From Methylorubrum extorquens (lineage in GTDB: Bacteria; Pseudomonadota; Alphaproteobacteria; Rhizobiales; Beijerinckiaceae): a stretch of 32,000 nucleotides of DNA. The number at the start of each line of letters is the position of its first letter. Positions within the stretch are counted from its first letter, which is position 1. Location of the stretch: NCBI GenBank assembly GCA_900234795.1, contig LT962688.1, forward strand, positions 3,900,001 through 3,932,000, read 5' to 3'. Both the position numbers and the translations under genes were made by a program. Below are positions 377 through 23,651 of the stretch, piece by piece. The notes beneath the pieces are model-generated. The model was given only the letters and a program-made list of their open reading frames with translations, ran no database searches and had not been told where the DNA came from.

Positions 377-943
377 ATGACGCCAAGGCAAGACGAACGG
401 GACAGCCCCGCCCCACGGACGACCTATTCGCCGCCTCAGCCGGAAGGGCTGGCGCCCGCTCTCCTGCGCAACATCCGGACGCTGCAGGAGCGCCGAAGCG
501 CCGCCGAACGCGAGGCCTCCCTGCAGGATCGCGTGGCCGAGGCGATCACGCGGTTCACGGGCAGCATGGCGTTCGTCGCCCTGCACGTCGTGCTGTTCGG
601 CTTCTGGACCCTGGTGAATTCGGGCCTGCTGCCGATCCTGCCGAAATGGGACGCGTCCTTCGTGATCCTCGGGACCGCGGCATCGGTCGAGGCGATCTTC
701 CTCTCGACCTTCGTACTGATCAGCCAGAACCGCATGGCCGCGGCGGCCAACAAGCGGGCCGATCTCGACCTCCACATCAGCCTTCTGGCCGAGCACGAGG
801 TGACGAAGCTCGTCGCGATGGTGTCGGCGATCACGGAGCGGATGGGCATCGAGACGGTCGCCGATCCAGAAGTCGGCGAACTCAGCCAGGATGTGGCCCC
901 CGACGCCGTCCTCGACGAGATCGAGCGAAACGACCGCGCCTGA
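377..943 (+). CDS. DUF1003-family integral membrane protein (188 aa)
   Basis: The C-terminal two thirds of ORF 80..943 reads FTGSMAFVALHVVLFGFWTLVN...VEAIFLSTFVLISQNRMAAAANKRADLDLHISLLAEHEVTKL. This is the two-TM plus QNR(q)a..D...a..d pattern typical of DUF1003. In-frame ATG at 377 (MTPRQDE) was chosen; the upstream Arg/Pro-rich part looks non-coding. The start is uncertain. Confidence 0.7.
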   Translation: MTPRQDERDSPAPRTTYSPPQPEGLAPALLRNIRTLQERRSAAEREASLQDRVAEAITRFTGSMAFVALHVVLFGFWTLVNSGLLPILPKWDASFVILGTAASVEAIFLSTFVLISQNRMAAAANKRADLDLHISLLAEHEVTKLVAMVSAITERMGIETVADPEVGELSQDVAPDAVLDEIERNDRA

Positions 944-961
944 CGCCCCGGCCCCCAAAAG

Positions 962-989
962 AAAATGGCCGGGCGAACCCGGCCATTTT
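962..989. terminator. Bidirectional rho-independent terminator between the convergent DUF1003 gene and mclA
   Basis: Perfect 12-bp stem AAAATGGCCGGG / CCCGGCCATTTT with a CGAA loop. The A-run and T-run flanks give a U-tract in both orientations. It lies 19 nt after the DUF1003 stop and 23 nt after the mclA stop. Confidence 0.75.
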
Positions 990-1011
990 CCGTTCTACCG
1001 ATAGAAGGAAA

Positions 1012-1986
1012 TTACTTCCCGCCCATCGCGTCGGCCTTCTGGATCAGCGCCTCGGCCATGCGGATCGAGGCGATGTCGATGAGGCGGCCGTCGAGCGAGA
1101 CGGCGCCGCGGCCGGCCTTGGCGGCCTCTTCCATGGCTTCCAGGATGCGGCGGGCCTTGGTGACCTCGGCCTCGGAGGGGGTGAAGACCTCGTTGGCCAG
1201 ATCGATCTGCGAGGGGTGGATCGCCCACTTGCCCTCGAAGCCGAGCGCGGCGCAGCGGCGAGCGGCCGAGGTGTAGCCGTCCGGATCGGAGAAGTCGCCG
1301 AAGGGACCGTCGATCGGGCGCAGGCCGTAGGCGCGGCAGGCGACCAGCATGCGGTTCTGGGCGAACAGCCACGGATCCTGCCAGTGCGTCTGGCGGTTGC
1401 CGGCCTCGTCCTTGTCGGTGAGCACGCTGTAATCGGCGTTGACGCCGCCGATCACGGTGGAGCGGGCGCGGGTGGAGGCGGCGTAGTCGGCGACACCGAA
1501 GGACATCGCCTCAAGGCGCTTGGACGAGGTCGCGATCGCCTCGACATTGGCCATGCCGAGCGCGGTCTCGATCAGCACCTCAAAGCCAATCTTCTTCTCG
1601 CGCTTCTTGGCCTGCTCGATCTGCGTCGTCAGCACGTCGATGGCGTAGACGTCGGCCGGCACGCCGACCTTGGGGATCAGGATCATGTCGAGGCGCGGGC
1701 AGGCCTCCACGATGTCCACCACGTCGCGGTACATGTAGTGGGTGTCGAGACCGTTGATGCGGATCATCATGGTCTTGTTGCCCCAATCCAGGTCGTTGAG
1801 AGCCTGGATGATGTTCTTGCGGGCCTGCTCCTTGTCGTCGGGCGCAACCGCATCCTCGAGGTCGAGGAAGATCACGTCGGCCTTCGAGGCGGCCGACTTC
1901 TCCATGAAGGTCGGGTTGGAGCCGGGAACCGCGAGTTCCGAGCGGTGCAGGCGCGGGGTGGCCTGCTGGATCAGGGTGAAGCTCAT
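1012..1986 (-). CDS. mclA: Malyl-CoA/beta-methylmalyl-CoA lyase (324 aa), serine cycle
   Basis: The translation from internal ATG 1986 starts MSFTLIQQATPRLHRSELAVPGSNP, which I recognise as the M. extorquens MclA N-terminus (HpcH/CitE-like fold). GGAGGA lies 8 nt upstream. The 23 extra N-terminal codons in the ORF track overlap that RBS. Confidence 0.95.
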   Translation of the reverse strand: MSFTLIQQATPRLHRSELAVPGSNPTFMEKSAASKADVIFLDLEDAVAPDDKEQARKNIIQALNDLDWGNKTMMIRINGLDTHYMYRDVVDIVEACPRLDMILIPKVGVPADVYAIDVLTTQIEQAKKREKKIGFEVLIETALGMANVEAIATSSKRLEAMSFGVADYAASTRARSTVIGGVNADYSVLTDKDEAGNRQTHWQDPWLFAQNRMLVACRAYGLRPIDGPFGDFSDPDGYTSAARRCAALGFEGKWAIHPSQIDLANEVFTPSEAEVTKARRILEAMEEAAKAGRGAVSLDGRLIDIASIRMAEALIQKADAMGGK

Positions 1987-2173
1987 CGGAAATCCTCCGT
2001 TCTGTGAGACCGTCTTGTCGTGCGCGCGGTCACGCGTGGGGGTCGCGTGCCGCACTTGAAAAGCATCGTCCTTTTCCGAAAGCCGGCGGCCACCTTTCGG
2101 GACGATGTTCTATCTCGCGCGTCCGGGCCGGCCGTCCAGCCGGTCCCGGAACACGTCGCCGAGATTGTATGCA

Positions 2174-4942
<2,769 letters not shown>

Positions 4943-5075
4943 GGGATCCCCCCTGGCGAGGTTCTCTTTTCGGAGTTCCGCAGGCTGATGCCTTCGGGCG
5001 GGCAGATGGATTCGATCGTCGGGGCGCTTCCTCCCCGCGGGACGGACTGGAGACCGCGTGCGCGTTTGCCTCCAT

Positions 5076-5183
5076 CCTCATCCCGAGGTGCCGGAGCGAA
5101 GCGGAAGCCTTGAGGGATCTTCCAGGAATCGCCCGCGATCCGGAGGCCCCTTCGAGGCCGCGTCGCGGCACCTCAGGGTGAGG
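5076..5183. repeat. ~108-bp imperfect palindromic intergenic element (MITE/REP-like), copy 1
   Basis: The left arm CCTCATCCCGAGGTGCCGGAGCGAAGCGGAAGCCTTGAGGGATCTTCC is mirrored by the right arm GGAGGCCCCTTCGAGGCCGCGTCGCGGCACCTCAGGGTGAGG. By eye it is about 80% identical to the element at 7607-7715. It lies in the mtkB-ppcA gap. Confidence 0.75.
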
Positions 5184-5220
5184 CGTCGGACAGCAGAAGC
5201 GCTGCCCGACGGAGAGGGCC

Positions 5221-6111
5221 TCAAGCCGCGCGGGCGAGCACGTCGGCCACGGTGCTGCCGAAGGAGCCCGGATCGGGCGCCACGGTCAGGCCGTAGGAGC
5301 GCATGATCTCGGCCTTCTCCGCGGCGCTGTCGCCGGTCGCCGAGATGATCGCGCCGGCATGCCCCATGCGGCGGCCCTTGGGGGCGGTGAGGCCCGCCAC
5401 GAAGCCAATCACGGGCTTGGAAAAGTTCTCCTTGATCCAGGCCGAGGCCTCGGCCTCCTGCGGACCGCCGATCTCGCCGATCATCAGCACGGCTTCCGTC
5501 TCAGGATCCTGCTCGAACAGAGCGAGGTGGTCGAGGAAGGAGGAGCCGTTGATCGGATCGCCGCCGATGCCGACCGAGGTCGAGATGCCGATGCCGAGCT
5601 CCTTCATCTGCGCCGCGGCCTCGTAGCCCAGCGTGCCGGAGCGGGAGATGACGCCGACCTTGCCGGGCAGGTAGATGTGGCCGGGCATGATGCCGAGCAT
5701 CGACTTGCCGGGCGAGATGATGCCCGCGCAGTTCGGGCCCACCACCATCGTGCGCTTCTCCTTCGGATAGCGCCGGAGGTAGCGTTTCACCCGCATCATG
5801 TCCTGAGCGGGGATGCCGTCGGTGATCGAGCAGACGAGCTTGAGGCCGGCATCGGCCGCCTCCATGATCGCGTCCGCCGCGAAGGGGGGCGCCACGAAGG
5901 TGATCGAGGTGGTGGCGCCGGTCGCCTCCACGGCCTCCTTGACGGTGTTGAACACCGGCACGCCGCAATGGGTCTTGCCGCCCTTGCCCGGGGTGACGCC
6001 GCCGACGACGTTCGAGCCGTAGGCGATCATCTCCTTGGCGTGGAAGGTGCCCTTGTCGCCCGTGATGCCCTGAACCAGGATCGGGGTCTTCTCGTCGATG
6101 AGAATGCTCAT
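5221..6111 (-). CDS. mtkB: Malate thiokinase (malate-CoA ligase) alpha/small subunit (296 aa)
   Basis: From ATG 6111 the translation reads MSILIDEKTPILVQGITGDKGTFHAKEMIAYGSNVVGGVTPGKGG. This is the succinyl-CoA synthetase alpha-like family, with the phosphohistidine loop region MGHAGAII. It lies 22 nt downstream of mtkA. The upstream 44 codons in the ORF track are Arg/Pro-rich and overlap mtkA. Confidence 0.95.
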   Translation of the reverse strand: MSILIDEKTPILVQGITGDKGTFHAKEMIAYGSNVVGGVTPGKGGKTHCGVPVFNTVKEAVEATGATTSITFVAPPFAADAIMEAADAGLKLVCSITDGIPAQDMMRVKRYLRRYPKEKRTMVVGPNCAGIISPGKSMLGIMPGHIYLPGKVGVISRSGTLGYEAAAQMKELGIGISTSVGIGGDPINGSSFLDHLALFEQDPETEAVLMIGEIGGPQEAEASAWIKENFSKPVIGFVAGLTAPKGRRMGHAGAIISATGDSAAEKAEIMRSYGLTVAPDPGSFGSTVADVLARAA

Positions 6112-6133
6112 GGCGTGATTCCTCCCCCGTTCG

Positions 6134-7306
6134 TCAGTGCTTGGCGCCGTGGCAGGCTTCGACAGCCTTGCGCGCGGCTTCCGTAAGGGTGTCGGCGGTG
6201 ATGAGGTCGAGCCCGCTCTCGGCGAGGATCTTCTTGCCTTCATCGACGTTCGTGCCGGCGAGCCGCACGATGAGCGGCACGTCGATCTTCACCTCGCGCG
6301 CGGCCTTGACCACGCCCTCCGCGACCCAGTCGCAGCGGTTGATGCCGGCGAAGATGTTGACGAGGATCGCCTTCACATTGCGGTCCGAGAGGACGAGGCG
6401 GAAGGCCGTGGCGACGCGATCCGGGCTGGCGCCGCCGCCCACATCCAGGAAGTTTGCCGGCTCGCCGCCCGCGTGCTTGATCATGTCCATGGTCGCCATG
6501 GCCAGACCCGCGCCGTTGACGATGCAGCCGATTTCGCCCTCAAGGCCGATATAGCTGAGATTGTGCTCGGCAGCCTGGGCCTCGCGCGGATCGCCCTGCG
6601 ACGGGTCGTGCATGTCCGCGATGTTGCGGCGGCGGAACAGGGCGTTGTCGTCGAAGGACATCTTGGCGTCGAGCGCCAGAACCCGGTCGTCCTTGGTGAC
6701 GACGAGCGGGTTGATCTCCAGCATGGTGCCGTCGCAGTCGCGGAACGCCCGGTAGGCGTTCATGATGGTCTTCACCGCGGCCGAGACCTGCTTGATGTTG
6801 AGGCCGAGCTGGAACGCGATCTCGCGGGCCTGGAACTGCTGCAGGCCCACCGCCGGCTCGACCACGACCTGGATCAGAGCCTCGGGCTCCTTGGCGGCGA
6901 TCTCCTCGATATCCATGCCGCCGCGCTGGGAGGCGATGACGCGAACGCGCTCGGCCTTCCGATCGAGGACGTAGCCGAGATAGAGTTCACGCTCGAACGG
7001 GTCGGCGGTCTCGACGTAGACGCGCTGCACCGGCTTGCCCTCGGGGCCGGTCTGGAGCGTGACGAGGCGTTTTCCCAGCAGGTCGCGGGCGGCGTCGCGC
7101 ACTTCGTTGTAGGTCCGGCAGAGCTTGATCCCGCCCGCCTTGCCCCGCGCGCCGGCATGGATCTGGGCCTTCACCGCCCAGAACGAGCCGCCGAGCTCGG
7201 TCGCCGCATAGACCGCTTGATCCGGGCTGAAAGCCACGGCGCCCTTCGGGACGGCGACCCCGAAGCTCGCGAGCAGCTCCTTGGCTTGGTACTCGTGAAC
7301 GTCCAT
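6134..7306 (-). CDS. mtkA: Malate thiokinase (malate-CoA ligase) beta/large subunit (390 aa)
   Basis: [22 protein letters not shown]... is an ATP-grasp SucC-like N-terminus. GAAGGAGG lies 6 nt upstream of ATG 7306. Gene order matches the qsc cluster. Confidence 0.95.
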
Positions 7307-7470
7307 CGAGACCTCCTTCGCGTTTCCGTCGTTTTTGTTGGGCCGACCTTCGCGGAAAAATTACTTTTCGGGAAGCGGGTCAGCTCTCAATTTTTTCTTT
7401 TGTAGTGCTTCAGTTTGCTTGCCCGTCAGTGACTTAGAGCCGTATCCAACCTGATTGCATCAGGCCGGCG
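7307..7470 (-). promoter_or_regulatory. Probable mtkA-mtkB-ppcA-mclA promoter/leader region (AT-rich island)
   Basis: This is the lowest-GC stretch of the cluster (e.g. CGGAAAAATTACTTTTCG, CAATTTTTTCTTTTGTAG), directly upstream of mtkA. It contains the dyads GAAAA-N5-TTTTC (7364-7378) and GTCAGTGAC (7425-7433). The exact -35/-10 and any LysR (QscR) sites were not resolved. Confidence 0.4.
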
Positions 7471-7606
7471 CCTCTCGGTCTTTGTTTTGACGCGCATTCT
7501 TTCGACGAACCGGTGACCACTTCGTCAGAATGCGCTCGAGCGGGCTTCTCACCTGCGAATCGTCCGGTGCGGGGACGGAGCATAGCAACGCTCGTCCGAT
7601 CCGCCT

Positions 7607-7715
7607 CCTCATCCTGAGGTGCCGTAGCGGAGCGGAGGCCTCGAAGGATCCTCCAGCCGGCCGCGCGATCTCTGGACGATCCTTCGAGGCCGCTTCGCGG
7701 CACCTCAGGATGAGG
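7607..7715. repeat. ~109-bp imperfect palindromic intergenic element (MITE/REP-like), copy 2
   Basis: Left arm: CCTCATCCTGAGGTGCCGTAGCGGAGCGGAGGCCTCGAAGGATCCTCC. Right arm: GGACGATCCTTCGAGGCCGCTTCGCGGCACCTCAGGATGAGG. It is the same family as 5076-5183 and lies in the fch-mtkA gap. Confidence 0.8.
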
Positions 7716-7855
7716 AAGAGGGTGGGACGACAGCCATCCGCTCCCCGCCTTTGCGAGGCGGAGCCGCAGCAATGCAAGGCTCGCCCCGTCCGGAACAGTC
7801 GCGCTCGGGAATGGCTTCGCGTCCGCTCGCGCCGACGGCGGGCGGCGCGAAGGTC

Positions 7856-8482
7856 TCAGTTCACCTTGGACTTCACGGTCTCGTAGATCCGCTCGTTGAG
7901 CGCGCCCGCCTCGGCCAGCAGGCCTTCCAGCTCCTTCAGCCGCTCCTCGGCGAAGGCGCGGTCGTCGAGGCCCTTGGCGTTGACGTAGACGTTGAGGGCC
8001 GCCGAGCGCAGGCCGGCATAGGCCGAGAGCACGGCGACGCCGGCATCCGAAATGACGTTGAGATTGCCCTTCTCGGCGACGATCTCGGCCAGATCGATCA
8101 CCTCGCGGCAGACGCGGCAGCAGGCGAGCGGCACGTCGGTCGCGGTCTTGAGCGCCTCCTGAATCTTGGCGGCGCGGGCGGCCTTCTCTTCGTCGGTGTT
8201 CTTCGGCAGCCCGTAGGCGCCCATCACCGCGTCGAAAGCCTCGACGTCGTCGGCGATCATGCCGGTGAGCGTGTGGCGCAAGCCTTCCGACTTCTCCAGC
8301 ACCTGCTTCAGGTCGGCTTCGACCTCGACATACTTCTTCTTACCGATGGTGAGATTGCACACCATCGACACCAGCGCCGCGCCCATGGCGCCGGAGATCG
8401 CCGCGGCACCGCCGCCGCCGGGGGTCGGGGCCGAGCTCGCCAGGCCGTCGAGGAATGTTTCGATTGTCTCGTTCGCGGCCAT
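7856..8482 (-). CDS. fch: Methenyl-tetrahydrofolate cyclohydrolase (208 aa), FTCD C-terminal domain family
   Basis: MAANETIETFLDGLASSAPTPGGGGAAAISGAMGAALVSMV is the characteristic cyclodeaminase/cyclohydrolase N-terminal glycine-rich motif. It lies between mtdA and mtkA. Confidence 0.92.
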   Translation of the reverse strand: MAANETIETFLDGLASSAPTPGGGGAAAISGAMGAALVSMVCNLTIGKKKYVEVEADLKQVLEKSEGLRHTLTGMIADDVEAFDAVMGAYGLPKNTDEEKAARAAKIQEALKTATDVPLACCRVCREVIDLAEIVAEKGNLNVISDAGVAVLSAYAGLRSAALNVYVNAKGLDDRAFAEERLKELEGLLAEAGALNERIYETVKSKVN

Positions 8483-8576
8483 GGGTCCCCTCCCCTGTCA
8501 GTTCTTGTTGATTCGCTGGGGCGGCGCCGAAGGCCGGCGCCGCCCATTGAGCTGTGACCCTTTGGGCCGTGAGCCG

Positions 8577-9443
8577 TCAGGCCATTTCCTTAGCCAGCTT
8601 GTAGATCTCCTCGGCGTCGAAGACGCCTTCGCTCGACTCGAACAGCTTGGCGATGCAGGCGCGGTGCAGCTTGAGCTTCAAGCCGCCGATGCCGAGCGCA
8701 CCGAAGGCGCGCTTTCCGCCGTATTCCTTGCCTTTGTCGGTCGCATCGATCCCGCCGATGCCGAGCGGCGGCTGGGCGTTGTAGTCGGCCACGATCTCGA
8801 TCGAACTCTCGTTCTGCCAGGCTGCCTGCGGCAGCAGTTCAAGGCCGATCGCACCGGCGGTGAAGACGAAATGGGCGCCCTTCACGGCCTCGGCGCGCGA
8901 AGCATCGTCCGCGGTCTCGGCCGCGGTGACGTTCACCTTGAACCGCTTGTTCACGGAATCGGCCGCGGCCTGTGCCTTGTCGAGCTTGCGCCCGCACAGC
9001 ACGACCTCGGCGCCCTCGCCGGCGAGCAGCGCCGCCGAGCGCATGCCGACCGGGCCGGTGCCCGCGAGCACGACGGCCTTCTTGCCCTTGACCGAGCCGC
9101 CCGCCGCCTTGACGACGAGCGCCACGCCCGCCGCGGCGGTCGTGTTGGAGCCGTTCGAATCCAGCATGCAGGACACGCGGAACGGGCCGAAGAAGCGCTT
9201 CTTCACCGCCTCGAACACCCGCTCGCCGGCCGCCATGTCGCCGCCGCCGACGAAGATCGCCGTCGACTGCTTCTCCTTGCCGCCGCGGGTGTAGATCGTG
9301 CCGTCGACATAGGCGCCGACGTTGTCGGGCGTGACGTTGCCGTAGCCGGTGATGTGGTCGGCACCGCCGTCGTAGCCGACGACGACGTCGAAGACGCTCG
9401 GCGTGGCATCGGTGTCGAACTGGAAGAGCAGCTTCTTGGACAT
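8577..9443 (-). CDS. mtdA: NADP-dependent methylene-H4F/methylene-H4MPT dehydrogenase (288 aa)
   Basis: MSKKLLFQFDTDATPSVFDVVVGYDGGADHITGYG is recognised as the MtdA N-terminus, and the Rossmann motif VLAGTGPVG is present. Position matches the qsc cluster. Confidence 0.92.
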   Translation of the reverse strand: MSKKLLFQFDTDATPSVFDVVVGYDGGADHITGYGNVTPDNVGAYVDGTIYTRGGKEKQSTAIFVGGGDMAAGERVFEAVKKRFFGPFRVSCMLDSNGSNTTAAAGVALVVKAAGGSVKGKKAVVLAGTGPVGMRSAALLAGEGAEVVLCGRKLDKAQAAADSVNKRFKVNVTAAETADDASRAEAVKGAHFVFTAGAIGLELLPQAAWQNESSIEIVADYNAQPPLGIGGIDATDKGKEYGGKRAFGALGIGGLKLKLHRACIAKLFESSEGVFDAEEIYKLAKEMA

Positions 9444-9586
9444 GATTCCTCTGGCCGGTTGTTCATGGACCGCGGTGATGGATCACGCGGTGCGTCTGCA
9501 TGGAGGATGCGTCCGGGGCCGTCCGGTCCCGGTCGCCCTCGAGAGTCTTTTCGTAACGCGGCCCCATTCCGAGGCCGGTGCGTTTC

Positions 9587-10531
9587 TTACGCCTCGACGA
9601 CGTTCTGCGGCTTGCCCGCGACGAAGGCTTCGACGTTGTCCACGAGCTGGTCGGCGAGGATCTGCATCGCCTCCTTGCTCGCCCAGGCCACGTGCGGGGT
9701 GACGATCAGGTTCGGCAGGTCGGCGTCGCAGAGGATGTTGCCGTCCTTCGGGGGCTCCTGGGCCACGACGTCGAAGCCGGCGCCGCCGATCGTGCCGTCC
9801 TTGAGCGCCTGGAGCAGGGCCGCCTCGTCCACCAGCCCGCCGCGGGCGGTGTTGATGAGGATCGCGGAGCGCTTCATCTTCTTGAGCTGCTCGGCCCCGA
9901 TCATGTTCTTGGTGTCGGGGGTCAGCGGTACGTGCAGCGTGATGACGTCGGACTGGGTCAGGATCGTATCGAGATCCACGAGCCCGTCCTGCGGGAACAC
10001 GTCGAAGGCGAGCACCTTCATGCCGAGGGCCTCGGCCCGCTTGGCGATCGACTTGCCGAGCGCGCCGTAGCCGATGATGCCGAGCGTCGAGCCGGCGATG
10101 TCGTAGATCGGGTAATCGAAGTAGCAGAACTGCTTCGACTTGTTCCAATCGCCCCGGCGCACCGAGTTGGCGTAAGGCACGATCGCCCGGCGCAGCGCGA
10201 ACATCAGGCCGACCACGTGCTCGGGCACGGTGTTGAAGGCGTAGTTGCGGATGTTGACGACCGTGATGCCTTGCGCCTTGGCCGCAGCCTTGTCGACGAC
10301 GTCCGTGCCGGTGGCAGCCACCGCGATCAGCTTCAGATCGGGAAGCTGCTTCAGCGTGTCGGCGCGCATCGGCACCTTGTTGATCATCGCGATCTCGGCG
10401 CCCTGAAGGCGCTCGACGATCTCCTCCGGCGTCCAGGTCGACTCGTATTCCTTGTACTCATGCGGGAAGTTGAATTCGCGCACGGTCGCGTCGAGCGACT
10501 CGCGATCGAGGAAGACGACTTTCTTTGTCAT
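9587..10531 (-). CDS. hprA: Hydroxypyruvate reductase / D-isomer 2-hydroxyacid dehydrogenase (314 aa)
   Basis: From ATG 10531 the translation reads MTKKVVFLDRESLDATVREFNFPHEYKEYES. The NAD motif GIIGYGALG is present, as are the catalytic-type residues of D-2-hydroxyacid dehydrogenases (...NTARGGLVDE..., ...TPHVAW...). The upstream 66 codons of the ORF-track entry are Arg/Gly-rich with low coding quality. Confidence 0.92.
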   Translation of the reverse strand: MTKKVVFLDRESLDATVREFNFPHEYKEYESTWTPEEIVERLQGAEIAMINKVPMRADTLKQLPDLKLIAVAATGTDVVDKAAAKAQGITVVNIRNYAFNTVPEHVVGLMFALRRAIVPYANSVRRGDWNKSKQFCYFDYPIYDIAGSTLGIIGYGALGKSIAKRAEALGMKVLAFDVFPQDGLVDLDTILTQSDVITLHVPLTPDTKNMIGAEQLKKMKRSAILINTARGGLVDEAALLQALKDGTIGGAGFDVVAQEPPKDGNILCDADLPNLIVTPHVAWASKEAMQILADQLVDNVEAFVAGKPQNVVEA

Positions 10532-10811
10532 TCTGGACCCCTTCCGGATCGACCGGCGGGCAATCGTGTCGCTCACGAAACCCCTGCCGCCCCGTCGTCG
10601 CCGGAGCGAGAACGGTCGGTGACCGGGAGTTTCATGAGGCACCGACGCCGGCCCCGTTTCCTCACCTGTCTCGAAGCGTCTCCCGCGGAACGCCGGCAAA
10701 CCGGACGTTCCACGGGGCGCCTTTCTCATGTAGCGGAAGCGGCGCCGTTGGAACCGGCGTCGCCCCCAAAAATCAGGCCAAAGAATTAGGCCCCAAGATC
10801 AGACCCCAAGA

Positions 10812-12021
10812 TCAGGCCTTGGCGAGCGGGTTCTCGCGCAGGTAGCTGGAGGCGGCGGCAACACCCGAACCGGGGGTCACCTTCACGCCGTTGTCGATGA
10901 GCGACATCTCGGCACCGGCGATGGCGCCGAGCAGCGAGAGTTCGTTCAGGTCGCCGACGTGACCGATGCGGAACACCTTGCCCGCGACCTGGGACAGGCC
11001 GGCGCCGAGCGCGAGGTTGTAGCGCACATAGGCGTGCTTGATGATCTTGGCCGCGTCCACACCCTCGGGCGCCAGGATGGCGGTGACGGTGTCGGAGTTC
11101 CACTCCGGCGACTTGGCACAGGTCTTCAGGCCCCAGGCCGCGACGGCCTGACGGGTCGCCTCACCGAGCACGGCGTGGCGGTGGTAGACGTTCTCCAGGC
11201 CTTCCTCGAACAGGCAGGCGAGCGCCTCGCGCAGGCCGTAGAGCAGCGGCAGCGGCGGGGTGTAGGGGAAGTAGCCGGTCGGGTTCTGCTTCTTCTGGTC
11301 CTCCCAGTCGAAGTAGACGCGGGCGAGCCGGTCGTTGCGGCCGGACTGACCCTCGGCGGCCTTGAGCGCCTTCTGGCTGACGCAGATCACGCCGAGGCCG
11401 GCGGGCAGCATCAGGCCCTTCTGGGAGCCGGCGATGGCGCAGTCGACCTTCCACTCGTCGGCCTTGAAGGGCAGCGAGCCGATGGAGGACACGCCGTCGA
11501 CGAACAGCAGGGCCGGGTGGCCGGCGGCGTCGATCGCCTTGCGCACGGCGCCGATGTTGGAGGTCACGCCGGTCGCGGTCTCGTTATGGACCACCATGAC
11601 GGCCTTGATCTCATGGTTCTTGTCGGCGCGCAGGGCCTCCTCGATCTTCTCGGGCTTGGCGCCGGTGCCCCACTCCTCCTCCTGGACGACGACGTCCAGG
11701 CCGAGGCGCTGGGCCATGTCGATCCAGAGATGGCTGAACTGGCCGAAGCGGGCGGCCAGCACCTTGTCGCCGCGGGCGAGCGTGTTGGACAGCGCCGATT
11801 CCCAGATGCCCGTGCCGGAGGCCGGGAACAGGAAGATCGTGCCTTCGGTCGAGCCGAACACCTTCTTGGTGTCCTCGAACAGCGGCTTCGTCAGCGACGG
11901 GGAAATCGACCGAACGGTGATCCTCGGACTGCACCATCATGGCGCGCATCACCCGGTCCGGGATGTTGGTCGGGCCGGGAACGAACAGATGGTTGCGTCC
12001 CGGACGTCTCGTTGCCGCCAT
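10812..12021 (-). pseudogene. sgaA: Serine-glyoxylate aminotransferase, interrupted by a 1-nt insertion (or an assembly error) in a C4 run at 11899-11902
   Basis: The N-terminal 41 codons (MAATRRPGRNHLFVPGPTNIPDRVMRAMMVQSEDHRSVDFP, ATG 12021, GGAGGA RBS) are in one frame. The remaining 361 codons (SLTKPLFEDTKKVFGSTEGTIFLFPASGTG...ENPLAKA) are in the -1-shifted frame. The span is 1210 nt, which is 403 codons plus 1. Removing one C gives a contiguous 402-aa class-V aminotransferase. Confidence 0.85.
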
Positions 12022-12036
12022 GAGAATTTCCTCCAA

Positions 12037-12630
12037 TTAAGTCGTTCTGGGCAGAGCGGCCCTTCGCGGCCGCGATCCCGCCCGATCCTGATGGCGAGCG
12101 CAAGCCCGCCGCGAAACGTCGTTCAGTCCCACCGCCGGTCCCACCGCAAAGCCGCGCGCAAAAGGCCTTCCGCCGACCGGGACCGTACCTCTGCGATGTC
12201 GGATCGTTGATCGTCCCGGAGCGGCGAAGCGGCCGTCGTGCCGCTCGCGTCGCGGCGCGTGCAGCCGCGCCGGTCGCCTCCTAAGGACCGAACCCTCGAT
12301 GCGTCAGCCCGGCGCCGCATTCAAGCGCGCTCCTGCTGCGTGTCCAGCGCTCCCATCCATCGCGGCCATTCCCGCACCTCTGCCGGGTGCTGCTGCGCAT
12401 GCCGGGGCACGCGCGGCGGATGACCTTGGCTGCCGTTATGCCTCCCCCGCCGGGGAATGGAAAACGGAAAAAAACTGAACTGAAAAACAAAAAGATTTTC
12501 GTATGCACCGGCTGCGGGCAGGGTCTGCGGCGAGCCATGGGCGGGCGCGGTGCCGGAAACCGGGGAGACCGCCCGCAGCGCCGAAGCGGGGCAGAACGAT
12601 GCACCCCGCCGTCATCAAACTGAGATCGGA
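12037..12630. promoter_or_regulatory. Long divergent non-coding region upstream of sgaA and of the lpxH-like gene; expected site of the sga-operon promoter and LysR (QscR) sites
   Basis: About 590 bp have no convincing ORF; only Arg/Pro-rich shadow frames are present. An A-rich island lies at about 12455-12505 (GGAAAACGGAAAAAAACTGAACTGAAAAACAAAAAGATTTTCG). No motif-level assignment was possible by eye. Confidence 0.35.
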
Positions 12631-13497
12631 ATGCGATTTGGCTCTTCCCCGTCGCGGTGCGGTTGTGAGGAGCCGAGGGCGCCAGTGTCACAGGATCCGG
12701 AATCGACCATCCGCGTTCGGACGCTCTTCCTGTCCGATCTGCATCTCGGCACCAAGGGCTGCCAGGCGGCCCTGCTGCTCGACTTCCTGCGCGACGTCGA
12801 TGCCGACACGATCTACCTCGTGGGCGACATCGTCGACGGCTGGCAGCTCCGCTCGGGCTGGTACTGGCCGCAGGCGCATAACGACGTGGTGCAGAAGCTG
12901 CTGCGCAAGGTGCGGAAAGGCGCGCACGTCGTCTACGTGCCCGGCAACCACGACGAGTTCCTACGTGACTATATCGGCATGACCTTCGGCGGCATCGAGA
13001 TCGCCGACAGCCGGATCCACGTCGCGGCCGACGGCAAGCGCTACCTCGTCATCCATGGCGACCAGTTCGACATGGTGGTGCGCCACTCCAAGTGGCTCGC
13101 GCATCTGGGCGACTGGGCCTACACCACCGCGCTCGCGGTCAACACCGTGGTCAACCGGATACGCCGCCGGCTCGGCCTCGCCTACTGGTCGCTCTCGGCC
13201 TGGGCGAAGCTCAAGGTGAAGAACGCGGTCAACTTCATCGGGCAGTTCGAGACCTTCCTCGCGACGGAAGCCCGGCGCCAGGGCGCGGACGGGGTGATCT
13301 GCGGCCACATCCACCATGCGGCCCATCGCGAGGTCGAGGGGCTGATCTACCTCAACACCGGCGATTGGGTGGAATCCTGCACCGGCATCGTCGAGCATTA
13401 CGACGGCCGCATGGAGGTGCTGCACTACCCGACCCTGCTGCGCGAGCGCCGCGGGACCGAGTCCTTCGAGCCCGAGATCCGCCGCGCCGTCGCCTAG
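12631..13497 (+). CDS. LpxH-family calcineurin-like metallophosphoesterase (UDP-2,3-diacylglucosamine diphosphatase-like), ~288 aa
   Basis: Metallophosphoesterase motifs appear in order: LFLSDLHLG, VGDIVDGW, PGNHDEF, IHGDQFD and CGHIHH. The start is ambiguous: ATG 12631, or GTG 12685 preceded by GAGGG. Confidence 0.8.
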   Translation: MRFGSSPSRCGCEEPRAPVSQDPESTIRVRTLFLSDLHLGTKGCQAALLLDFLRDVDADTIYLVGDIVDGWQLRSGWYWPQAHNDVVQKLLRKVRKGAHVVYVPGNHDEFLRDYIGMTFGGIEIADSRIHVAADGKRYLVIHGDQFDMVVRHSKWLAHLGDWAYTTALAVNTVVNRIRRRLGLAYWSLSAWAKLKVKNAVNFIGQFETFLATEARRQGADGVICGHIHHAAHREVEGLIYLNTGDWVESCTGIVEHYDGRMEVLHYPTLLRERRGTESFEPEIRRAVA

Positions 13498-13529: not shown

Positions 13530-14612
13530 ATGAGGCTGCTGCTCGCCACCGATGCGTGGCACCCGCAGGTCAACGGTGTGGTGCGCTCGGTCGAGCGCAT
13601 GGCCGAGGCCGCCGCCGGTCTCGGCGTCGAGCCGCTGATGCTGACGCCGGCCGACTTCCCCTTCCTGCCGATGCCGGGCTACCGCGAGATCCGGCTCTCT
13701 CTGGTCACCCGCGGCCGGGTGCTGTCCCGCTGGGAGCGGCTCGCGCCGACCCATGTGCACATCGCAACAGAAGGCCCGATCGGCCACGCGGTGCGCGCCG
13801 CCTGCCTGTCGCGCGGGCAGGCCTTCACCACGAGCTACCACACCCGCTTTCCCGAATACCTCGCCGCCCGCGCGCCGGTGCCGGAGGCCTGGAGCTATGC
13901 GTGGCTGCGCCGCTTCCACGCCGCGGCGAGCGGCACCATGGTCAGCACGCCCTCCCTCGAACGGGAGCTGGCGGGGCGTGGCTTCACCCACCTGATGCGC
14001 TGGACCCGCGGCGTCGACACCGACCTCTTCCGCCCCCGTGACGGCGACGACGGGGCGAACCCGTTTCCCGATCTGCCGCGGCCGATCTTCCTCTCGGTCG
14101 GCCGGCTCGCGGTCGAGAAGAACCTTGCCGCCTTTCTCAGCCTCGATCTGCCGGGCTCCAAGGTCGTGGTCGGCGACGGGCCGGACCGGGCGCGGCTCCA
14201 GGCGCTGGCGCTGGCGCCGGACGCGTACTTCCTCGGCGCGCTGACCGGCGAGGCGCTGGCGCGGGTCTATGCGCGTGCCGACGCCTTCGTGTTCCCGAGC
14301 CTGACCGACACCTTCGGCATCGTGCTGCTCGAAGCGCTCGCCTCGGGCCTGCCGGTGGCGGCCTATCCCGTGACCGGCCCCCTCGACGTGATCGGCGGCA
14401 CCGGCGCGGGCGCCCTCGATGCGGATCTGCGCGCGGCCGCACTCGCCGCGCTCGCGATCCCGCGGGAGCGCTGCCGGGCGGAGGCGATGCGCTACACCTG
14501 GGCCGAGAGCGCGCGCCAGTTCTACGACAACATCGCGACCGCCCACGCGCTCGGATCGGTTCAGCGCTCCGCCCGCCAACCGGGCAGCGCCCCGCTGCCG
14601 CGCCCCGGCTGA
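13530..14612 (+). CDS. GT4-family (GT-B, group 1) glycosyltransferase, 360 aa
   Basis: From ATG 13530 the translation reads MRLLLATDAWHPQVNGVVRSVERM, a typical GT4 N-terminus. The C-terminal E-x7-E-type region FVFPSLTDTFGIVLLEALASGLPV is present. It lies 32 nt after the lpxH-like stop. Confidence 0.8.
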   Translation: MRLLLATDAWHPQVNGVVRSVERMAEAAAGLGVEPLMLTPADFPFLPMPGYREIRLSLVTRGRVLSRWERLAPTHVHIATEGPIGHAVRAACLSRGQAFTTSYHTRFPEYLAARAPVPEAWSYAWLRRFHAAASGTMVSTPSLERELAGRGFTHLMRWTRGVDTDLFRPRDGDDGANPFPDLPRPIFLSVGRLAVEKNLAAFLSLDLPGSKVVVGDGPDRARLQALALAPDAYFLGALTGEALARVYARADAFVFPSLTDTFGIVLLEALASGLPVAAYPVTGPLDVIGGTGAGALDADLRAAALAALAIPRERCRAEAMRYTWAESARQFYDNIATAHALGSVQRSARQPGSAPLPRPG

Positions 14613-15390: not shown

Positions 15391-15744
15391 CGGGGTGCCG
15401 GTGGGATCCTTGCCGGTGCCGTCGTGTCTCCCCCTTCCCCGCAGCCACGGCCGTCCGGAAAAACTCGGAAGCCGAAGGTCAGCCGAGTCGGGTTCTCGGA
15501 AGCCCTCGCGACCATGCGCTGTGGCCTTTGGCGCGAGCTGTGGGACCGGATCGGGCTTCTCCTCTCATCCGCATGACCCGCCCGCTTAACCGCCCGTTAA
15601 CCCAAACTTGACTTGATCGATCTCGAGACTGCGCGCTCCCTGCGTGCCTCGATCCGATGCCGCTTCCGCCGAGGGAAGCGCCTGCGCGCCGGGCAAGCCC
15701 GGGCGGGCATAGGGGCGGGCAAGGGAGCCGGTAGGGAGACCGAC

Positions 15745-16362
15745 ATGCCGCACGATCCCATCCGAACGGGGGGCACGACCCGCCGCGCCGCCCTGCTCGG
15801 CCTCTCGGCCGGACTTTCCGGCGGCCTCCTGGCCGGGGCCACCCCCGCTCTGGCCTATCAGGACGACGGCGTGCGCCCGGACTCGTTCCGCGCCGCCGAG
15901 GTGGTCGAGAATGGGCACCGCTTCTTCGGCAGCGTGTCCCGCGGCCTCGCGCTCACCGTCGAGGAGGCGACCCGGCGCTGGGGCGAGCCCAACGGCTACA
16001 TCCTGGGACAGGAGGCGTCCGGCGCCATCGTCGGCGGCCTGCGCTTCGGCGAGGGCACGCTCTATACCCGCAATGCCGGGCAGCGCCGGATCTACTGGCA
16101 GGGGCCGACGCTCGGCTTCGATGTCGGCGGCGACGGCGCGCGCACCATGATGCTCGTCTACAACCTGCCCGCCGTGCGCGACCTCTACCGCCGCTTCGGC
16201 GGCGTCGACGGCTCGGCCTACTTCATCGGCGGCTTCGGCATGACGGCGGTGACCGACGGCGGCATCATCGTGGTGCCGATCCGCTCCGGCGTCGGCGCCC
16301 GGCTCGGCATCAATATCGGCTATCTGAAATTCACCGGCCGCCCGACTTGGAACCCGTTCTGA
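15745..16362 (+). CDS. DUF1134-family periplasmic protein (EipA-like), Tat/Sec signal, 205 aa
   Basis: ATG 15745 follows GGGAGA. The signal reads TRRAALLGLSAGLSGGLLAGATPALA. The mature part reads GYILGQEASGAIVGGLRFGEGTLY...GFDVGGDGARTMMLVYN...GSAYFIGGFGM, which matches my recollection of DUF1134. Confidence 0.7.
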   Translation: MPHDPIRTGGTTRRAALLGLSAGLSGGLLAGATPALAYQDDGVRPDSFRAAEVVENGHRFFGSVSRGLALTVEEATRRWGEPNGYILGQEASGAIVGGLRFGEGTLYTRNAGQRRIYWQGPTLGFDVGGDGARTMMLVYNLPAVRDLYRRFGGVDGSAYFIGGFGMTAVTDGGIIVVPIRSGVGARLGINIGYLKFTGRPTWNPF

Positions 16363-16571
16363 CCGTTTCCCGAACGATTCGGGCCATCGCCTGACGCCAC
16401 ACAATCTCCCGGAGAGGGCGGGCTGGGGGCCCTCTGCGACAAGCGCCCGCGGGTGCGGTCGCCGACGCTTAAGGCCGGAGGGAAGACACGGCGCTTGCCT
16501 CCGCGCGGGCAAGACGGGCAAAAGACGCAGCGGCCGGACCTGCCCGGCCGAGGCGGCGTGAGGGCCCCTTC

Positions 16572-17294
16572 GTGATCGAGACCGTGATGATCTTCGGGCT
16601 CGGCTTCCTCCTGGCGAGCCTGTGCGCCCTGACGATCCTGCCGACCGTGAGCGCCCGCGCCAGCCGTCTCGCCCGACGGCGGATCGAGGCGACCCTGCCG
16701 GTGAGCGTGTCCGAGGTCGTGGCCGAGCGCGACCATCTGCGCGCGGAGTTCGCCGTCGTGCAGCGGCGGCTGGAGCGGAAGGCCGAGGCGATCGCCGCCC
16801 GGCGCCACGCCGACATGGCCGCCATCGGGACCCGCACCATGGAGACCGAGGCTGCGGTCGCCGCCCGGATCCGCAGCGAGGCCGAGGTGGCCCGCGCCCT
16901 CGAGCGCATCGCCGGGCTCGACCGGGACCTCGCCTCGGCGCGGGCCGAGGGTGAGACCGGGCTCGCCACCCTGCACGCCCTGGAAGAGGCCCACCGCGCG
17001 ATCCTCGACGATCTCAAGGCGACGCGCCGGATGCAGGCCGCGACCGCGCCGTCGGGCGCCGAGGGCGAGACCGTCGGGCCTGCCTCCACGGCGGCCGAGA
17101 TCGAGGCGCTGCGCGCGGAATTAACGGCGGCCCAGGCCGCGCTGGCCGCACGCGGGAGCGACGACACCGCCGAGCTGCGCCGCCGTATCAGCGAGGTCGC
17201 CGACGCCTTGGCGCGGCACGACCGTCTGCCCCAAGATCGCTTGCCCCAGGCCGGAGCCTTTCCGGCCGCGTCGCCCGCGCTCGCCGAGAGCTGA
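16572..17294 (+). CDS. Membrane-anchored coiled-coil protein, unknown function (240 aa)
   Basis: It has a GTG start, one N-terminal TM (IFGLGFLLASLCALTILPTV), then a long Ala/Arg/Glu heptad-like region. Third-position GC is very high in this frame only. Confidence 0.6.
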   Translation: MIETVMIFGLGFLLASLCALTILPTVSARASRLARRRIEATLPVSVSEVVAERDHLRAEFAVVQRRLERKAEAIAARRHADMAAIGTRTMETEAAVAARIRSEAEVARALERIAGLDRDLASARAEGETGLATLHALEEAHRAILDDLKATRRMQAATAPSGAEGETVGPASTAAEIEALRAELTAAQAALAARGSDDTAELRRRISEVADALARHDRLPQDRLPQAGAFPAASPALAES

Positions 17295-17484
17295 AACGCA
17301 CCGAGCGGCGCCGGCCGGGGGCCTACTCTGCCAGCATCTCTTGCCCCGTCCCGTACGAGCCCGTAAGCACCGAACCATCTTGCGTTTGCCCCGGACCCGC
17401 CTTGTTTCGAACAAGCGGGGGCATCATCGCGCCCGGATCTCCTCTCACGAATCTCTTCCCACGAACCGCGATCGAGCGAACATC

Positions 17485-17763
17485 ATGGCTTTGAAGCTGA
17501 CGCCCCTGGTTCTCGCCCTCACGGGTGCGGTCGCCGTGTTGGCTGCTCCGGCACAGGCGCAGCAGTCGAAGCGCGGCAACGAGACGCTCAAGAAGTACTG
17601 CACCGGCGATTACCTCAGCTATTGCGGCAACCTCGACCCGGACGATCCGGCCACCGATCAGTGCTTCAAGACCAACTGGGCCAAGCTCTCCGAAAACTGC
17701 CGTCGGGCGATCGACGCCTACGCGCCGCCGAAGGATTCGCAGCGCGGCAACAAGAAGAGCTGA
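17485..17763 (+). CDS. Small secreted cysteine-rich-repeat protein (92 aa)
   Basis: ATG 17485 starts the Sec signal MALKLTPLVLALTGAVAVLAAPAQA. The mature part carries C-x2-D-x4-C...C-x7-LS-x2-C (CTGDYLSYC...CFKTNWAKLSENC), the bacterial 'cysteine rich repeat' pattern. GC3 is high. Confidence 0.65.
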   Translation: MALKLTPLVLALTGAVAVLAAPAQAQQSKRGNETLKKYCTGDYLSYCGNLDPDDPATDQCFKTNWAKLSENCRRAIDAYAPPKDSQRGNKKS

Positions 17764-17915
17764 CGACCGCGCTGGGGCCCGACGGAAGCGGGCGCGCTGC
17801 GCAGCCATGTCGCGCGCGCCTCGTCCCGCCCGAGACGCCGCGGCCCACCTTTCGGGGCGAGGCTCCAACGGCTAAGCTCGTACCGCCCAGCCGGGAAAGA
17901 CCGCCGGAAACACCG

Positions 17916-18266
17916 ATGCCCGCCCCTTCCGCCCGCCTCTCGATCCTGATCGCGCTCGGCCTCACCCTGGCCTGCACGGCCTGTGGCCGGCGCGGCAGCC
18001 TGGAGCCGCCGGGTGCGGCCCTCTCCGAGACCGCTCCGGGGACGCGGCCCGGCGTTCCCGCCTCGGCGCGGAGCCTGCCGGGCAGCACGGTCTCCGTGGG
18101 TGATCGCGGCGCGGCCCCCGATCCGGAAGCCGTGCAGGCGGGCGACGAGCTGAGCGCCGCGGCGATCCCCGCAGGCGGCGACGGCGTTCCGGTCACGACC
18201 TCCCGCGGATCCAAGCGCGGCTACCGGATCCCGAAAGAGCCCTTCATCCTCGATCCGCTTCTGTAG
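17916..18266 (+). CDS. Probable small lipoprotein upstream of lysA (116 aa)
   Basis: ATG 17916 starts a signal-like MPAPSARLSILIALGLTLACTACG with a lipobox-like LAC/TAC, followed by a Pro/Gly/Ala-rich low-complexity region. Small lipoprotein genes commonly precede lysA or dapF. Confidence 0.55.
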   Translation: MPAPSARLSILIALGLTLACTACGRRGSLEPPGAALSETAPGTRPGVPASARSLPGSTVSVGDRGAAPDPEAVQAGDELSAAAIPAGGDGVPVTTSRGSKRGYRIPKEPFILDPLL

Positions 18267-18464
18267 CGGGCCGCCGGAGCGCGCCCCTACCGAGGCCGGT
18301 CTCCGGTTCGGGGGCACACAGCTTCCGATCCTCGATCCACTCCCCTCCGGGCGTGCCCGTGAAGTGGGAGTTTTGTGAGAGACACGTAGACAGCGCACCG
18401 CGCGTGGGGGCATTCGGATGCGCCGATCCCTCATCCGGCGGGCGCGGCGGCGGATTCTCCTGAC

Positions 18465-19733
18465 ATGCACCATTTCCACTACCGGGACGGGCGCCTCCAC
18501 GCCGAGGACGTCGATCTGACCGCGCTGGCCGAGGAGGTCGGCACACCGTTCTACTGCTACAGCACCGCGACTCTGGAACGGCACTACCGCGTCTTCGCCG
18601 AGGCCTTCGCGGGCGACGATGCGCTGGTGTGCTTTGCCATGAAGGCGAACTCGAACCAGGCGGTGCTCGCCACCCTCGCGCACCAGGGTGCGGGCATGGA
18701 CATCGTCTCCGAGGGCGAATTGCGCCGGGCGCTCGCTGCGGGCGTGCCGTGCGAGCGCATCGTGTTCTCCGGCGTCGGTAAGACCCGCGAGGAAATGGCT
18801 GCGGCGCTCGACGCGAACATCCTCTGCTTCAACGTCGAGAGCGAGCCGGAACTCGCCGCCCTGTCCGAGGTCGCCGTCGCGCGCGGGCGCAAGGCGCCGG
18901 TCTCGATCCGCGTGAACCCGGATGTCGATGCGCTGACGCATGCCAAGATCTCGACCGGCAAGTCCGACAACAAGTTCGGCATCCCGATCTCCCGCGCCCG
19001 CGCGGTCTATGCCGGGGCCGCCCGGCTACCCGGCCTGGAGATCGTCGGCGTCGATGCGCATATCGGCAGCCAGATCACCGACCTGACCCCGTTCGACAAC
19101 GCCGCGCGCCTGCTCTGCGAGCTGGCCCGCGATCTGCTCGCCGACGGGCACCGGCTGCACCATGTCGATTTCGGCGGCGGCCTCGGCATCCCCTATCGCG
19201 ACGACAACGCGCCCCCGCCCGATCCGGCGGCTCTGGCCGCGATCCTGCGCCCGCATTTCAAGCCGCTCGGCCTGCGCCCCGTCTTCGAGATCGGGCGGAT
19301 GATCGCCGGCAATGCCGGCATCCTCGTCACCCGCGTGATCTACGTGAAGCCGACGGACGAGAAGACCTTCGTCATCGTCGACGGGGCGATGAACGATCTG
19401 ATCCGCCCGACGCTCTACGAGGCCTTCCACGCCCTGCGCCCGGTACGCGAGCCCGCGCCCGATACGCCCCGGCTGACGGCGGACGTGGTCGGCCCGGTCT
19501 GCGAGAGCGGCGACTATCTCGCACTTGGGCGCGAGATGCCGATGGTGGCGCCGGGCGACCTCATCGCGGTGATGAGCGCGGGCGCCTACGGTGCGGTCCA
19601 GGCCTGCACCTACAACAGCCGCCGCCTCGTGCCCGAGGTGCTCGTGACCGGCGACCGCTCGGCCGTGGTGCGCCCGCGTCCGAGCTACGACGACCTGATC
19701 CGCCTCGACCGCCTGCCCGACTGGCTCGCGTGA
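18465..19733 (+). CDS. lysA: Diaminopimelate decarboxylase (422 aa)
   Basis: It is a fold-III PLP decarboxylase: MHHFHYRDGRLHAEDVDLTALAEEVGTPFYCYS, the AMKAN PLP-lysine motif, GGGLGI and CESGD. Confidence 0.93.
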   Translation: MHHFHYRDGRLHAEDVDLTALAEEVGTPFYCYSTATLERHYRVFAEAFAGDDALVCFAMKANSNQAVLATLAHQGAGMDIVSEGELRRALAAGVPCERIVFSGVGKTREEMAAALDANILCFNVESEPELAALSEVAVARGRKAPVSIRVNPDVDALTHAKISTGKSDNKFGIPISRARAVYAGAARLPGLEIVGVDAHIGSQITDLTPFDNAARLLCELARDLLADGHRLHHVDFGGGLGIPYRDDNAPPPDPAALAAILRPHFKPLGLRPVFEIGRMIAGNAGILVTRVIYVKPTDEKTFVIVDGAMNDLIRPTLYEAFHALRPVREPAPDTPRLTADVVGPVCESGDYLALGREMPMVAPGDLIAVMSAGAYGAVQACTYNSRRLVPEVLVTGDRSAVVRPRPSYDDLIRLDRLPDWLA

Positions 19734-19803
19734 CGCTCTCGGCGGAGCCCGTGTGGCCCGCCGCCCGTTGCGTGAGGACGCCGCCCGTCCGAGAACACTG
19801 ACG

Positions 19804-20355
19804 ATGAAGACTGCCGATTGCGACATCCTGATCCTGCCGGGCTATGCCGGCTCCGAGGAGGAGCACTGGCAGGCGCGCTGGGCGGCCCGGCTCAAGACCG
19901 CGCGGATCGTCGCGCAGGACGACTGGCACCGGCCCGATCCGGAGGCGTGGCGTGCCCGCGTCGCGGAGGCGGTTGCGGCGGCGACCCGGCCCGTGATTCT
20001 CATCGCCCACAGCCTCGGCGTCGTCGCGGCGGTGGAGGCCGCACCGCGCTTCCCCGAAGGCGTCGTGCGCGGGGCCCTGCTGGTGGCCTTCCCCGACATC
20101 GAGGCGGGGGCGGACCTGCCCGAGAGCGTGCGCGCCTTCGCGCCGGTGCCGCGCGATCCGCTGCCCTTCCCGTCGCTGCTGGTGGCGAGCCGCACCGACC
20201 CGCACTGCACCTACGAGCGGGCGGAGGATTACGCCTATGCCTGGGGCTCGGCGCTGGTGGATGCGGGCGAGGCCGGCCACATCAACGTCGCGAGCGGGCA
20301 CGGGCCGTGGCCGGAGGGCCTGATGCGGCTGGCCGGCTTTCTCGCGCCGCTTTAG
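19804..20355 (+). CDS. RBBP9/YdeN-like alpha/beta serine hydrolase (183 aa)
   Basis: From ATG 19804 the translation reads ILILPGYAGSEEEHWQARW. The nucleophile elbow AHSLG, and D and GHIN near the C-terminus, follow the PF06821-type pattern. Confidence 0.72.
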   Translation: MKTADCDILILPGYAGSEEEHWQARWAARLKTARIVAQDDWHRPDPEAWRARVAEAVAAATRPVILIAHSLGVVAAVEAAPRFPEGVVRGALLVAFPDIEAGADLPESVRAFAPVPRDPLPFPSLLVASRTDPHCTYERAEDYAYAWGSALVDAGEAGHINVASGHGPWPEGLMRLAGFLAPL

Positions 20356-20563
20356 TCGGGCCGATCCGCCGGGGAGCCGAATAGGGTATTGCCGATCAGG
20401 GAGTTGCCGGATTTTCCGTCAAATGCAGGTGCCTAGGGATGGGAATGCAGTTCTAAAAAGTTTCTTCGATCCGGGGCGAATCGGGAACTTAAATTTCCTC
20501 AATTGCTTTCTCCGGGCAGACCGGCCGGCAGTGTCGGTCGGATAATTTCGGAGGGACGCCATC

Positions 20564-20950
20564 GTGACGCTCACGAAGACCATCGCTACCGCCACCGCTT
20601 TCGCCTTCATCGCCGGCTCTGCGCTCGCCGCTCCGTGCAACACGGGCAGCACCAACGCCAAGGCCCCCGGAGATTCCGCTGCTGCCAACAGCAGCACCGG
20701 CAGCGGCGCCGATGCGGGTTCGAAGAACCTCGCGGGTGGCCAGCAGCCGGCTTCGCCCGGCACCGTCGGCGCGATGAACAATGTCGGCGCCGGTCAGGGC
20801 GTCGGCAACAAGCCGGGCTCGGACCAGACCAGCTCGGCCAAGAACACCGCCGGCGGCGACCAGCCGGCCGCCCCGGGCACGGTTGGCGCGATGAACGCCG
20901 CCGGCCATGACCAGAAGCTCGGCGAGAAGAAGGGCGGCGACGACTGCTGA
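20564..20950 (+). CDS. Secreted low-complexity protein with two 25-aa internal repeats and a terminal Cys (128 aa)
   Basis: The GTG start lies 7 nt after GGAGGGA. The signal is TATAFAFIAGSALA/AP. Repeats KNLAGGQQPASPGTVGAMNNVGAGQ (20723-20797) and KNTAGGDQPAAPGTVGAMNAAGHDQ (20840-20914) are present. A strong terminator follows the gene. Confidence 0.62.
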   Translation: MTLTKTIATATAFAFIAGSALAAPCNTGSTNAKAPGDSAAANSSTGSGADAGSKNLAGGQQPASPGTVGAMNNVGAGQGVGNKPGSDQTSSAKNTAGGDQPAAPGTVGAMNAAGHDQKLGEKKGGDDC

Positions 20951-20977
20951 TCGCCGCACTCACTCAGCCGTAACGAA

Positions 20978-21013
20978 AAGAAGCTCCCAGGCCGCCCGGC
21001 CTGGGAGCTTCTT
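20978..21013. terminator. Rho-independent (probably bidirectional) terminator between convergent genes
   Basis: Perfect 16-bp stem AAGAAGCTCCCAGGCC / GGCCTGGGAGCTTCTT with a GCCC loop. It starts 28 nt after the stop at 20950. Confidence 0.75.
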
Positions 21014-21083
21014 GCTTTCGGGGCGCCGCCCCGGTCCCCGCCCAAGGCATGATCCCTTTGGGGATGATCCCTTTGGAATCTTA

Positions 21084-23551: not shown

Positions 23552-23651
23552 GGCAGGCTCTGGCGGCAGGCTTCGGCGGGGAAGCGGGACGGGCTGTCAG
23601 GTGGCGCGGGACGGCTGCGATCTCAAGACGCGGAAAGGCCTCGGAGGCATC

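Follow-up and report, generated by a model that had tools for sequence, protein, structure and literature searches.

In the deposited genome of Methylorubrum extorquens TK 0001 (LT962688), which we take to be the type strain of the species, the serine-glyoxylate aminotransferase gene sgaA is split by one extra base. This base is almost certainly a homopolymer-length error left in the Nanopore-based assembly rather than a biological mutation. The stretch analysed, referred to here as the window, comprises positions 3,900,001-3,932,000 of that record (32,000 nucleotides). On this reading the strain would have a normal sgaA, and the finding would carry little biological weight and no biological novelty, with modest value as a curation flag.

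On the minus strand, a GGAGGA Shine-Dalgarno sequence followed by a 7-nt spacer precedes the sgaA ATG at 12021, and from this ATG to the stop at 10812 the deposited locus measures 3n+1 nt. The reading begins MAATRRPGRNHLFVPGPTNIPDRVMRAMMVQSEDHRSVDFP, and the aminotransferase frame is lost at TTC CCC GTC, in the context ...GTC GAT TTC CCC GTC GCT GAC GAA GCC.... Frame 0 translates as MAATRR...SVDFPVADEAAVRGHQ... and then turns into Arg/Pro-rich nonsense up to a stop at 11611. The +1 frame gives ...SPSLTKPLFEDTKKVFGSTEG... up to the native stop, with the aminotransferase sequence ...SLTKPLFEDTKKVFGSTEG... remaining open throughout. Because G TCG CTG ACG AAG CCG continues unaltered downstream as GTCGCTGACGAAGCCG, the four Cs of the window represent an insertion, and deletion of one base from the run produces an ORF of 402 aa plus stop. 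An earlier note had located a split by one extra base of a C4/G4 run within 11861-11940 and had proposed that deleting one C brings back a class-V aminotransferase; both points hold. Its description of the locus as 1210 nt, one more than 403 codons, is correct as to length, the intact gene consisting of 402 sense codons and a stop (403 triplets). In the ORF listing the 5' piece appears as 11611..12036, which amounts to 141 aa when counted from a TTG.

Features of the sgaA region and sites at which the window departs from near-identical loci
Feature	Position in window	Strand	Remarks
sgaA (serine-glyoxylate aminotransferase)	10812..12021	-	true gene span; 1210 nt deposited, 1209 nt corrected
Contiguous SgaA product			predicted; tryptic peptide would span SVDFPSLTKPLFEDTK
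G4 run (C4 on the coding strand)	11898..11901		plus-strand letters; one base surplus, G3 taken as the true state; window G4 vs G3 elsewhere, 10/10 covering near-identical loci disagree with the window
Artefactual 349-aa CDS	10812..11861	-	internal GTG start; without SgaA residues 1-53
Artefactual 5' ORF, 136 aa from the real ATG	11611..12021	-	41 genuine SgaA residues, then out-of-frame Arg/Pro-rich tail
hprA (hydroxypyruvate reductase)	9587..10531	-	intact, directly downstream of sgaA
Remainder of serine-cycle island, all intact	1012..9443	-	supported by gene order and by the Pfam families of syntenic loci
mtdA	8577..9443	-	
fch	7856..8482	-	
mtkA	6134..7306	-	
mtkB	from 5221	-	
ppc	2174..4942	-	
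mclA	from 1012	-	
A7 run	12468-12474		window A7 vs A6 in 12/12 covering loci; sgaA / metallophosphatase divergent intergenic (promoter) region
Single base, window T	13663		T (CCCCTTCC) vs C (CCCCTCCC) in 12/12 covering loci; GT4 glycosyltransferase gene 13530..14612, + strand
Single base, window T	15436		T (CCCCCTTCCCC) vs C (CCCCCTCCCCC) in 9/9 covering loci; intergenic, between RNase HII gene and EipA-family gene

With one base deleted, the corrected SgaA (402 aa) was 100 % identical to one M. extorquens SgaA orthologue (P0134) and differed by 1 aa over 402 aa from the M. extorquens strain PA1 protein (P0133, with ABY30194.1 among its accessions). Compared with these two proteins, it contained no lesion besides the extra base. 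The corrected protein matched Aminotran_5 (PF00266) at 88.1 bits, against a gathering cut-off of 21.5; the 349-aa fragment aligned to the profile only from position 80 onward and the 136-aa 5' ORF gave no match in the Pfam search. The closest solved structure was a serine-glyoxylate aminotransferase, 6pk1 (E = 1.5e-144, residues 6-397). Within the N-terminal 53 residues that the 349-aa piece lacks, 25 columns were invariant among 13 homologues, down to 69 % identity, so a protein initiated at the internal GTG would lose a strongly constrained segment. The 13-sequence alignment also had invariant S199, Q200 and K201 in the PLP-lysine motif S-Q-K (within GSQKGLM), K201 presumably being the Schiff-base lysine by analogy with AGT-family enzymes.

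The top NCBIfam match of the corrected protein was BhcA (NF045640; 549.7 bits, nearly full length), and membership of this L-aspartate-glyoxylate aminotransferase family was ruled out by a score below the curated cut-off of 650. Genomic context and sequence identity place the protein with SgaA and not with the BhcA equivalog. It is predicted to have serine:glyoxylate transaminase activity, for which the methanol growth of the strain is indirect support. The protein is like SgaA of M. extorquens AM1/PA1 in its 402 aa, its PF00266 class-V fold and its gene neighbourhood; the only difference is the extra G/C of the deposited TK 0001 record, and biologically there is none.

The gene heads a serine-cycle island, sgaA-hprA-mtdA-fch / mtkA-mtkB-ppc-mclA, which lies entirely on the minus strand and has identical Pfam families in identical order in three syntenic loci (L001, L019 and L020). 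The sgaA-hprA-mtdA-fch cluster, and the need for sgaA in C1 growth, were reportedly described by Chistoserdova and Lidstrom in 1994. Compared with the locus of a Leaf isolate (L001, 97.7 % identical), the sgaA indel was the sole non-3n indel within any CDS across 734-22001. The other CDSs of the island showed none relative to this locus, and HprA was the same as its 314-aa HprA without a difference. Long antisense ORFs of 350-600 aa were observed opposite the serine-cycle genes, among them 8259..10070 (+), 9578..10789 (+) and 10959..12023 (+). These had no counterpart among the gene calls of the syntenic loci and are typical of DNA of 67-70 % GC, not genes.

Logan assemblies of Illumina runs were retrieved using the exact products of the neighbouring metallophosphatase, DUF697 and Ppc genes. 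This gave more than 20 runs (ERR2831463, -466, -467, -471, -504 and -573; ERR2849800-818, including ERR2849801 and ERR2849812; ERR2822809; and others). The same exact-product look-up found no record for the 349-aa fragment, the 136-aa 5' fragment or the 360-aa GT4 protein of the window. The runs presumably stem from the Genoscope resequencing and RNA-seq work on TK 0001 (PRJEB27428/29054/29055), as judged from perfect sequence identity, strain-specific markers, sample number and accession ranges. The two largest contigs, common to 9 and 7 samples respectively, matched the window at 100.000 % identity over 1-7517 and 15648-32000. Across the whole 32 kb the window and the Illumina assemblies differed at exactly four sites and were otherwise 100 % identical; the nearest other strains (L011, L019 and L020) were ~0.15 % different from the window.

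At the sgaA site the Illumina assemblies had the shorter run, and the gene was called in them as an intact 402-aa gene (1209 nt). The earlier note had advised counting the Cs against other alleles. Among the fetched loci the 27-mer with three Cs was present in 15, and the 28-mer with four Cs was present in the window only. The note had also left a choice between a homopolymer sequencing or assembly error and a genuine frameshift in a methanol-negative or suppressor-carrying strain. The first is borne out by four private sites that every covering Illumina locus contradicts. The second is contradicted by G3 with an intact 402-aa gene in the Illumina assemblies and by the growth of the strain on methanol.

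All four window-private sites were inside or bordering homopolymers and fell between 11.9 and 15.4 kb, within 3.6 kb. The two T/C sites had the contexts CCCCT[C>T]CC and CCCCCT[C>T]CCCC. More distant outgroup strains matched the Illumina state at 4/4 of these sites, and outside this stretch the window (28 kb with about 27 other genes) was without errors. That the four window-only 'derived' states share a homopolymer context and cluster within 3.6 kb indicates unpolished Nanopore consensus errors rather than a mutation spectrum. The A7 run is probably a second homopolymer error of the record. The T at 13663 replaces S45 with F45 in the GT4 protein, where the Leaf isolate has S, and Phe45 is probably a spurious missense. 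A TGGCGC 6-bp tandem duplication in the same GT4 gene (14212-14217), which adds Leu-Ala, was a TK 0001-specific strain marker; it is real, because the Illumina assemblies carry it.

A real +1-base frameshift in the sequenced TK 0001 clone would make sgaA a pseudogene and leave survival on methanol to a suppressor or a second aminotransferase. In its favour, the base stands in a deposited sequence that had undergone MiSeq polishing at 134x, and beyond the 3.6-kb stretch the window (28 kb) is free of errors. We nevertheless consider such a mutation very unlikely, given G3 in over 20 Illumina assemblies that otherwise match the window exactly, and given that three more private differences in homopolymer context within 3.6 kb form an error signature. 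Nor did sgaA show secondary degenerative changes, and sga is very highly expressed, with a normalised RNA-seq read count of 8.3e4, among the highest (PMC6595629). The DNA for the genome came from cells in minimal medium with 1 % methanol (PMC5824006). The strain grows optimally at 1 % methanol and has been evolved to tolerate 10 % (PMC6595629), and serine-glyoxylate aminotransferase (SGAT) is required for growth of M. extorquens on C1 substrates (PMC2948502 Table 1). A null sgaA allele therefore conflicts with methanol growth, with the C1 requirement for SGAT and with the high expression of sga.

The sgaA site was located in 79/80 species-representative genomes, in the motif ...(E/D)DHRS-x-x-F-P-x-L..., and 79/79 kept ...F-P... 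in frame. In 18/79 of these relatives a C4 run was present; it forms TTC CCC, where the Pro codon is a synonymous one and the length is unaltered. The case of relatives sharing the four-base run in another register with an intact protein, which the earlier note had raised, thus does not arise. Other relatives had TTT CCG, TTC CCA and like codons in place of the run, and the tract was not conserved. The frameshift itself was conserved in 0/79 relatives and 0/15 near-identical loci.

These comparisons also bear on two explanations in which four Cs would be functional. Under phase variation, sgaA would be a contingency locus switched on and off by the homopolymer, with the assembly having caught the off state. 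A mononucleotide run that changes in length by one unit is what would be expected, but the run has only 3-4 bases, and tracts of this size are far below the lengths with appreciable slippage rates. A single length was moreover found in 10/10 covering independent assemblies, and relatives swap the run for other codons. The probability of phase variation is in our view negligible.

Under programmed recoding, CCCC would be genuine and full-length SgaA would be made by +1 tRNA-Pro frameshifting on CCC-C/G or by transcriptional slippage. The upstream frame does have a strong Shine-Dalgarno sequence and an ATG, and tRNA-Pro is known to be prone to +1 shifts at CCC-N. The finding of G3 in Illumina assemblies of the same strain all but refutes recoding, and the extra base is likewise absent from the relatives and near-identical loci counted above. 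A 4-nt run is also too short for efficient slippage, and recoding of low efficiency would severely limit a high-flux enzyme of a central pathway. We regard it as vanishingly improbable. It is likewise extremely unlikely that the sequenced clone was truly CCCC and either made SgaA by +1 tRNA-Pro frameshifting at CCC-G or was kept viable by a compensating suppressor in the culture. If it were, a core serine-cycle enzyme would depend on recoding.

The error reading is consistent with how the record was made. The genome of TK 0001 (= DSM 1337 / ATCC 43645) was obtained from MinION reads by Canu correction and smartdenovo assembly, followed by polishing with 2x150 MiSeq reads at 134x (PMC5824006). 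The real chromosome would then have GGG (coding CCC) at the run and encode an ordinary intact 402-aa SgaA, transcribed at the start of the sgaA-hprA-mtdA-fch cluster. This PLP-dependent class-V aminotransferase is predicted to convert serine and glyoxylate to hydroxypyruvate and glycine in the serine cycle. The run would have been over-called by one base by the basecaller or assembler, and Illumina polishing would have missed the ~3.6-kb stretch (11.9-15.4 kb) that holds the three other homopolymer-context errors. The exact step of the error, whether basecalling, consensus or polishing, is one that we infer.

The single-base over-call of a short G/C run is like the homopolymer errors that remain in Nanopore (R9-era) assemblies after incomplete polishing, and the window likewise has a length error (A7/A6) and, at the borders of C runs, two T/C swaps. 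Unlike the usual residual errors, those of the window number 4 per 32 kb, are locally clustered and involve a run of only 3-4 bases. Against the error reading, the assembly is generally well polished outside the 3.6-kb stretch.

At the annotation step, the pipeline would have kept only the longest downstream ORF, with its internal GTG, as a bogus 349-aa 'sga' CDS. The 349-aa ORF is identical to SOR30783.1 / UniRef100_A0A2N9AU09 (UniProt A0A2N9AU09), labelled serine-glyoxylate aminotransferase. In Supplementary Table 3 of Belkhelfa et al. 2019 (PMC6595629), TK0001_v2_4181 'sga' is given as 3910812..3911861 (1050 nt, minus) and TK0001_v2_4182 as 3912685..3913497, corresponding to the window ORF 12685..13497. 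Both sets of published gene coordinates equal those of the window ORFs plus exactly 3,900,000 (LT962688). The 136-aa 5' ORF is unannotated in the MicroScope labels, in which 4181 and 4182 are consecutive. The expectation that the error would spawn two bogus CDS annotations was thus half right: a bogus 349-aa CDS is found in GenBank and UniProt, and it is the only one, the 5' piece having been passed over. The truncated SgaA has also propagated into the published expression table, as the 'sga' gene model of PMC6595629.

Neither an sgaA frameshift nor reference errors are mentioned in the main text of the TK 0001 papers from 2019 and 2024, and Table 1 of PMC6595629 lists no 1-bp sga discrepancy among 24 resequenced isolates. 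The absence of sga from that table would be expected only if the authors removed whatever the wild-type control also showed, on which the paper is not explicit. The same table reports dxs (TK0001_v2_4086) as 'del T/-' in all 24 evolved isolates, a change not linkable to methanol tolerance. This shared 1-bp deletion in the DXP synthase gene could be another homopolymer error of the reference rather than an adaptive mutation.

In Supplementary Table 3 of PMC6595629 the TK0001 label occurs about 3450 times and 'fragment' 222 times, and the '(fragment)' genes of TK 0001 include those for glutamine synthetase II, metA and dihydrolipoamide dehydrogenase. The annotation counts 6,160 CDSs for 5.71 Mb, 24.3 % of them 'strain-specific' (PMC5824006). 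The many fragments and the CDS total are consistent with more residual indels elsewhere in the genome, and the figures of 6,160 CDSs and 24.3 % strain-specific may be inflated by such indels. Extended to the full genome, the error rate of the window would predict a few hundred residual errors. Data quality matters here since transcriptomics, metabolic modelling and strain engineering all use TK 0001 as a reference, and the 3.6-kb stretch also contains the spurious GT4 missense and the indel in the sgaA promoter region. The errors found, together with the many '(fragment)' genes, suggest that the record needs re-polishing. Until then, caution is advisable for pan-genome counts of strain-specific CDSs, pseudogene calls and variant calls made against LT962688.

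A structural difference was also observed among the Illumina contigs. Contig ERR2831466_191 (9 samples) departs from the window at ~28287/28288 and enters an IS110-family transposase. The junction lies in a Wzy_C (O-antigen-ligase-like) gene at 27026..~28441 (-), as seen in locus L013 over 1-1360. Table 1 of PMC6595629, which covers SNPs and short indels, does not include an insertion in Wzy_C. The site was uninterrupted in the contigs of at least 7 other samples, which points to an IS insertion carried by only some of the cultures derived from TK 0001.
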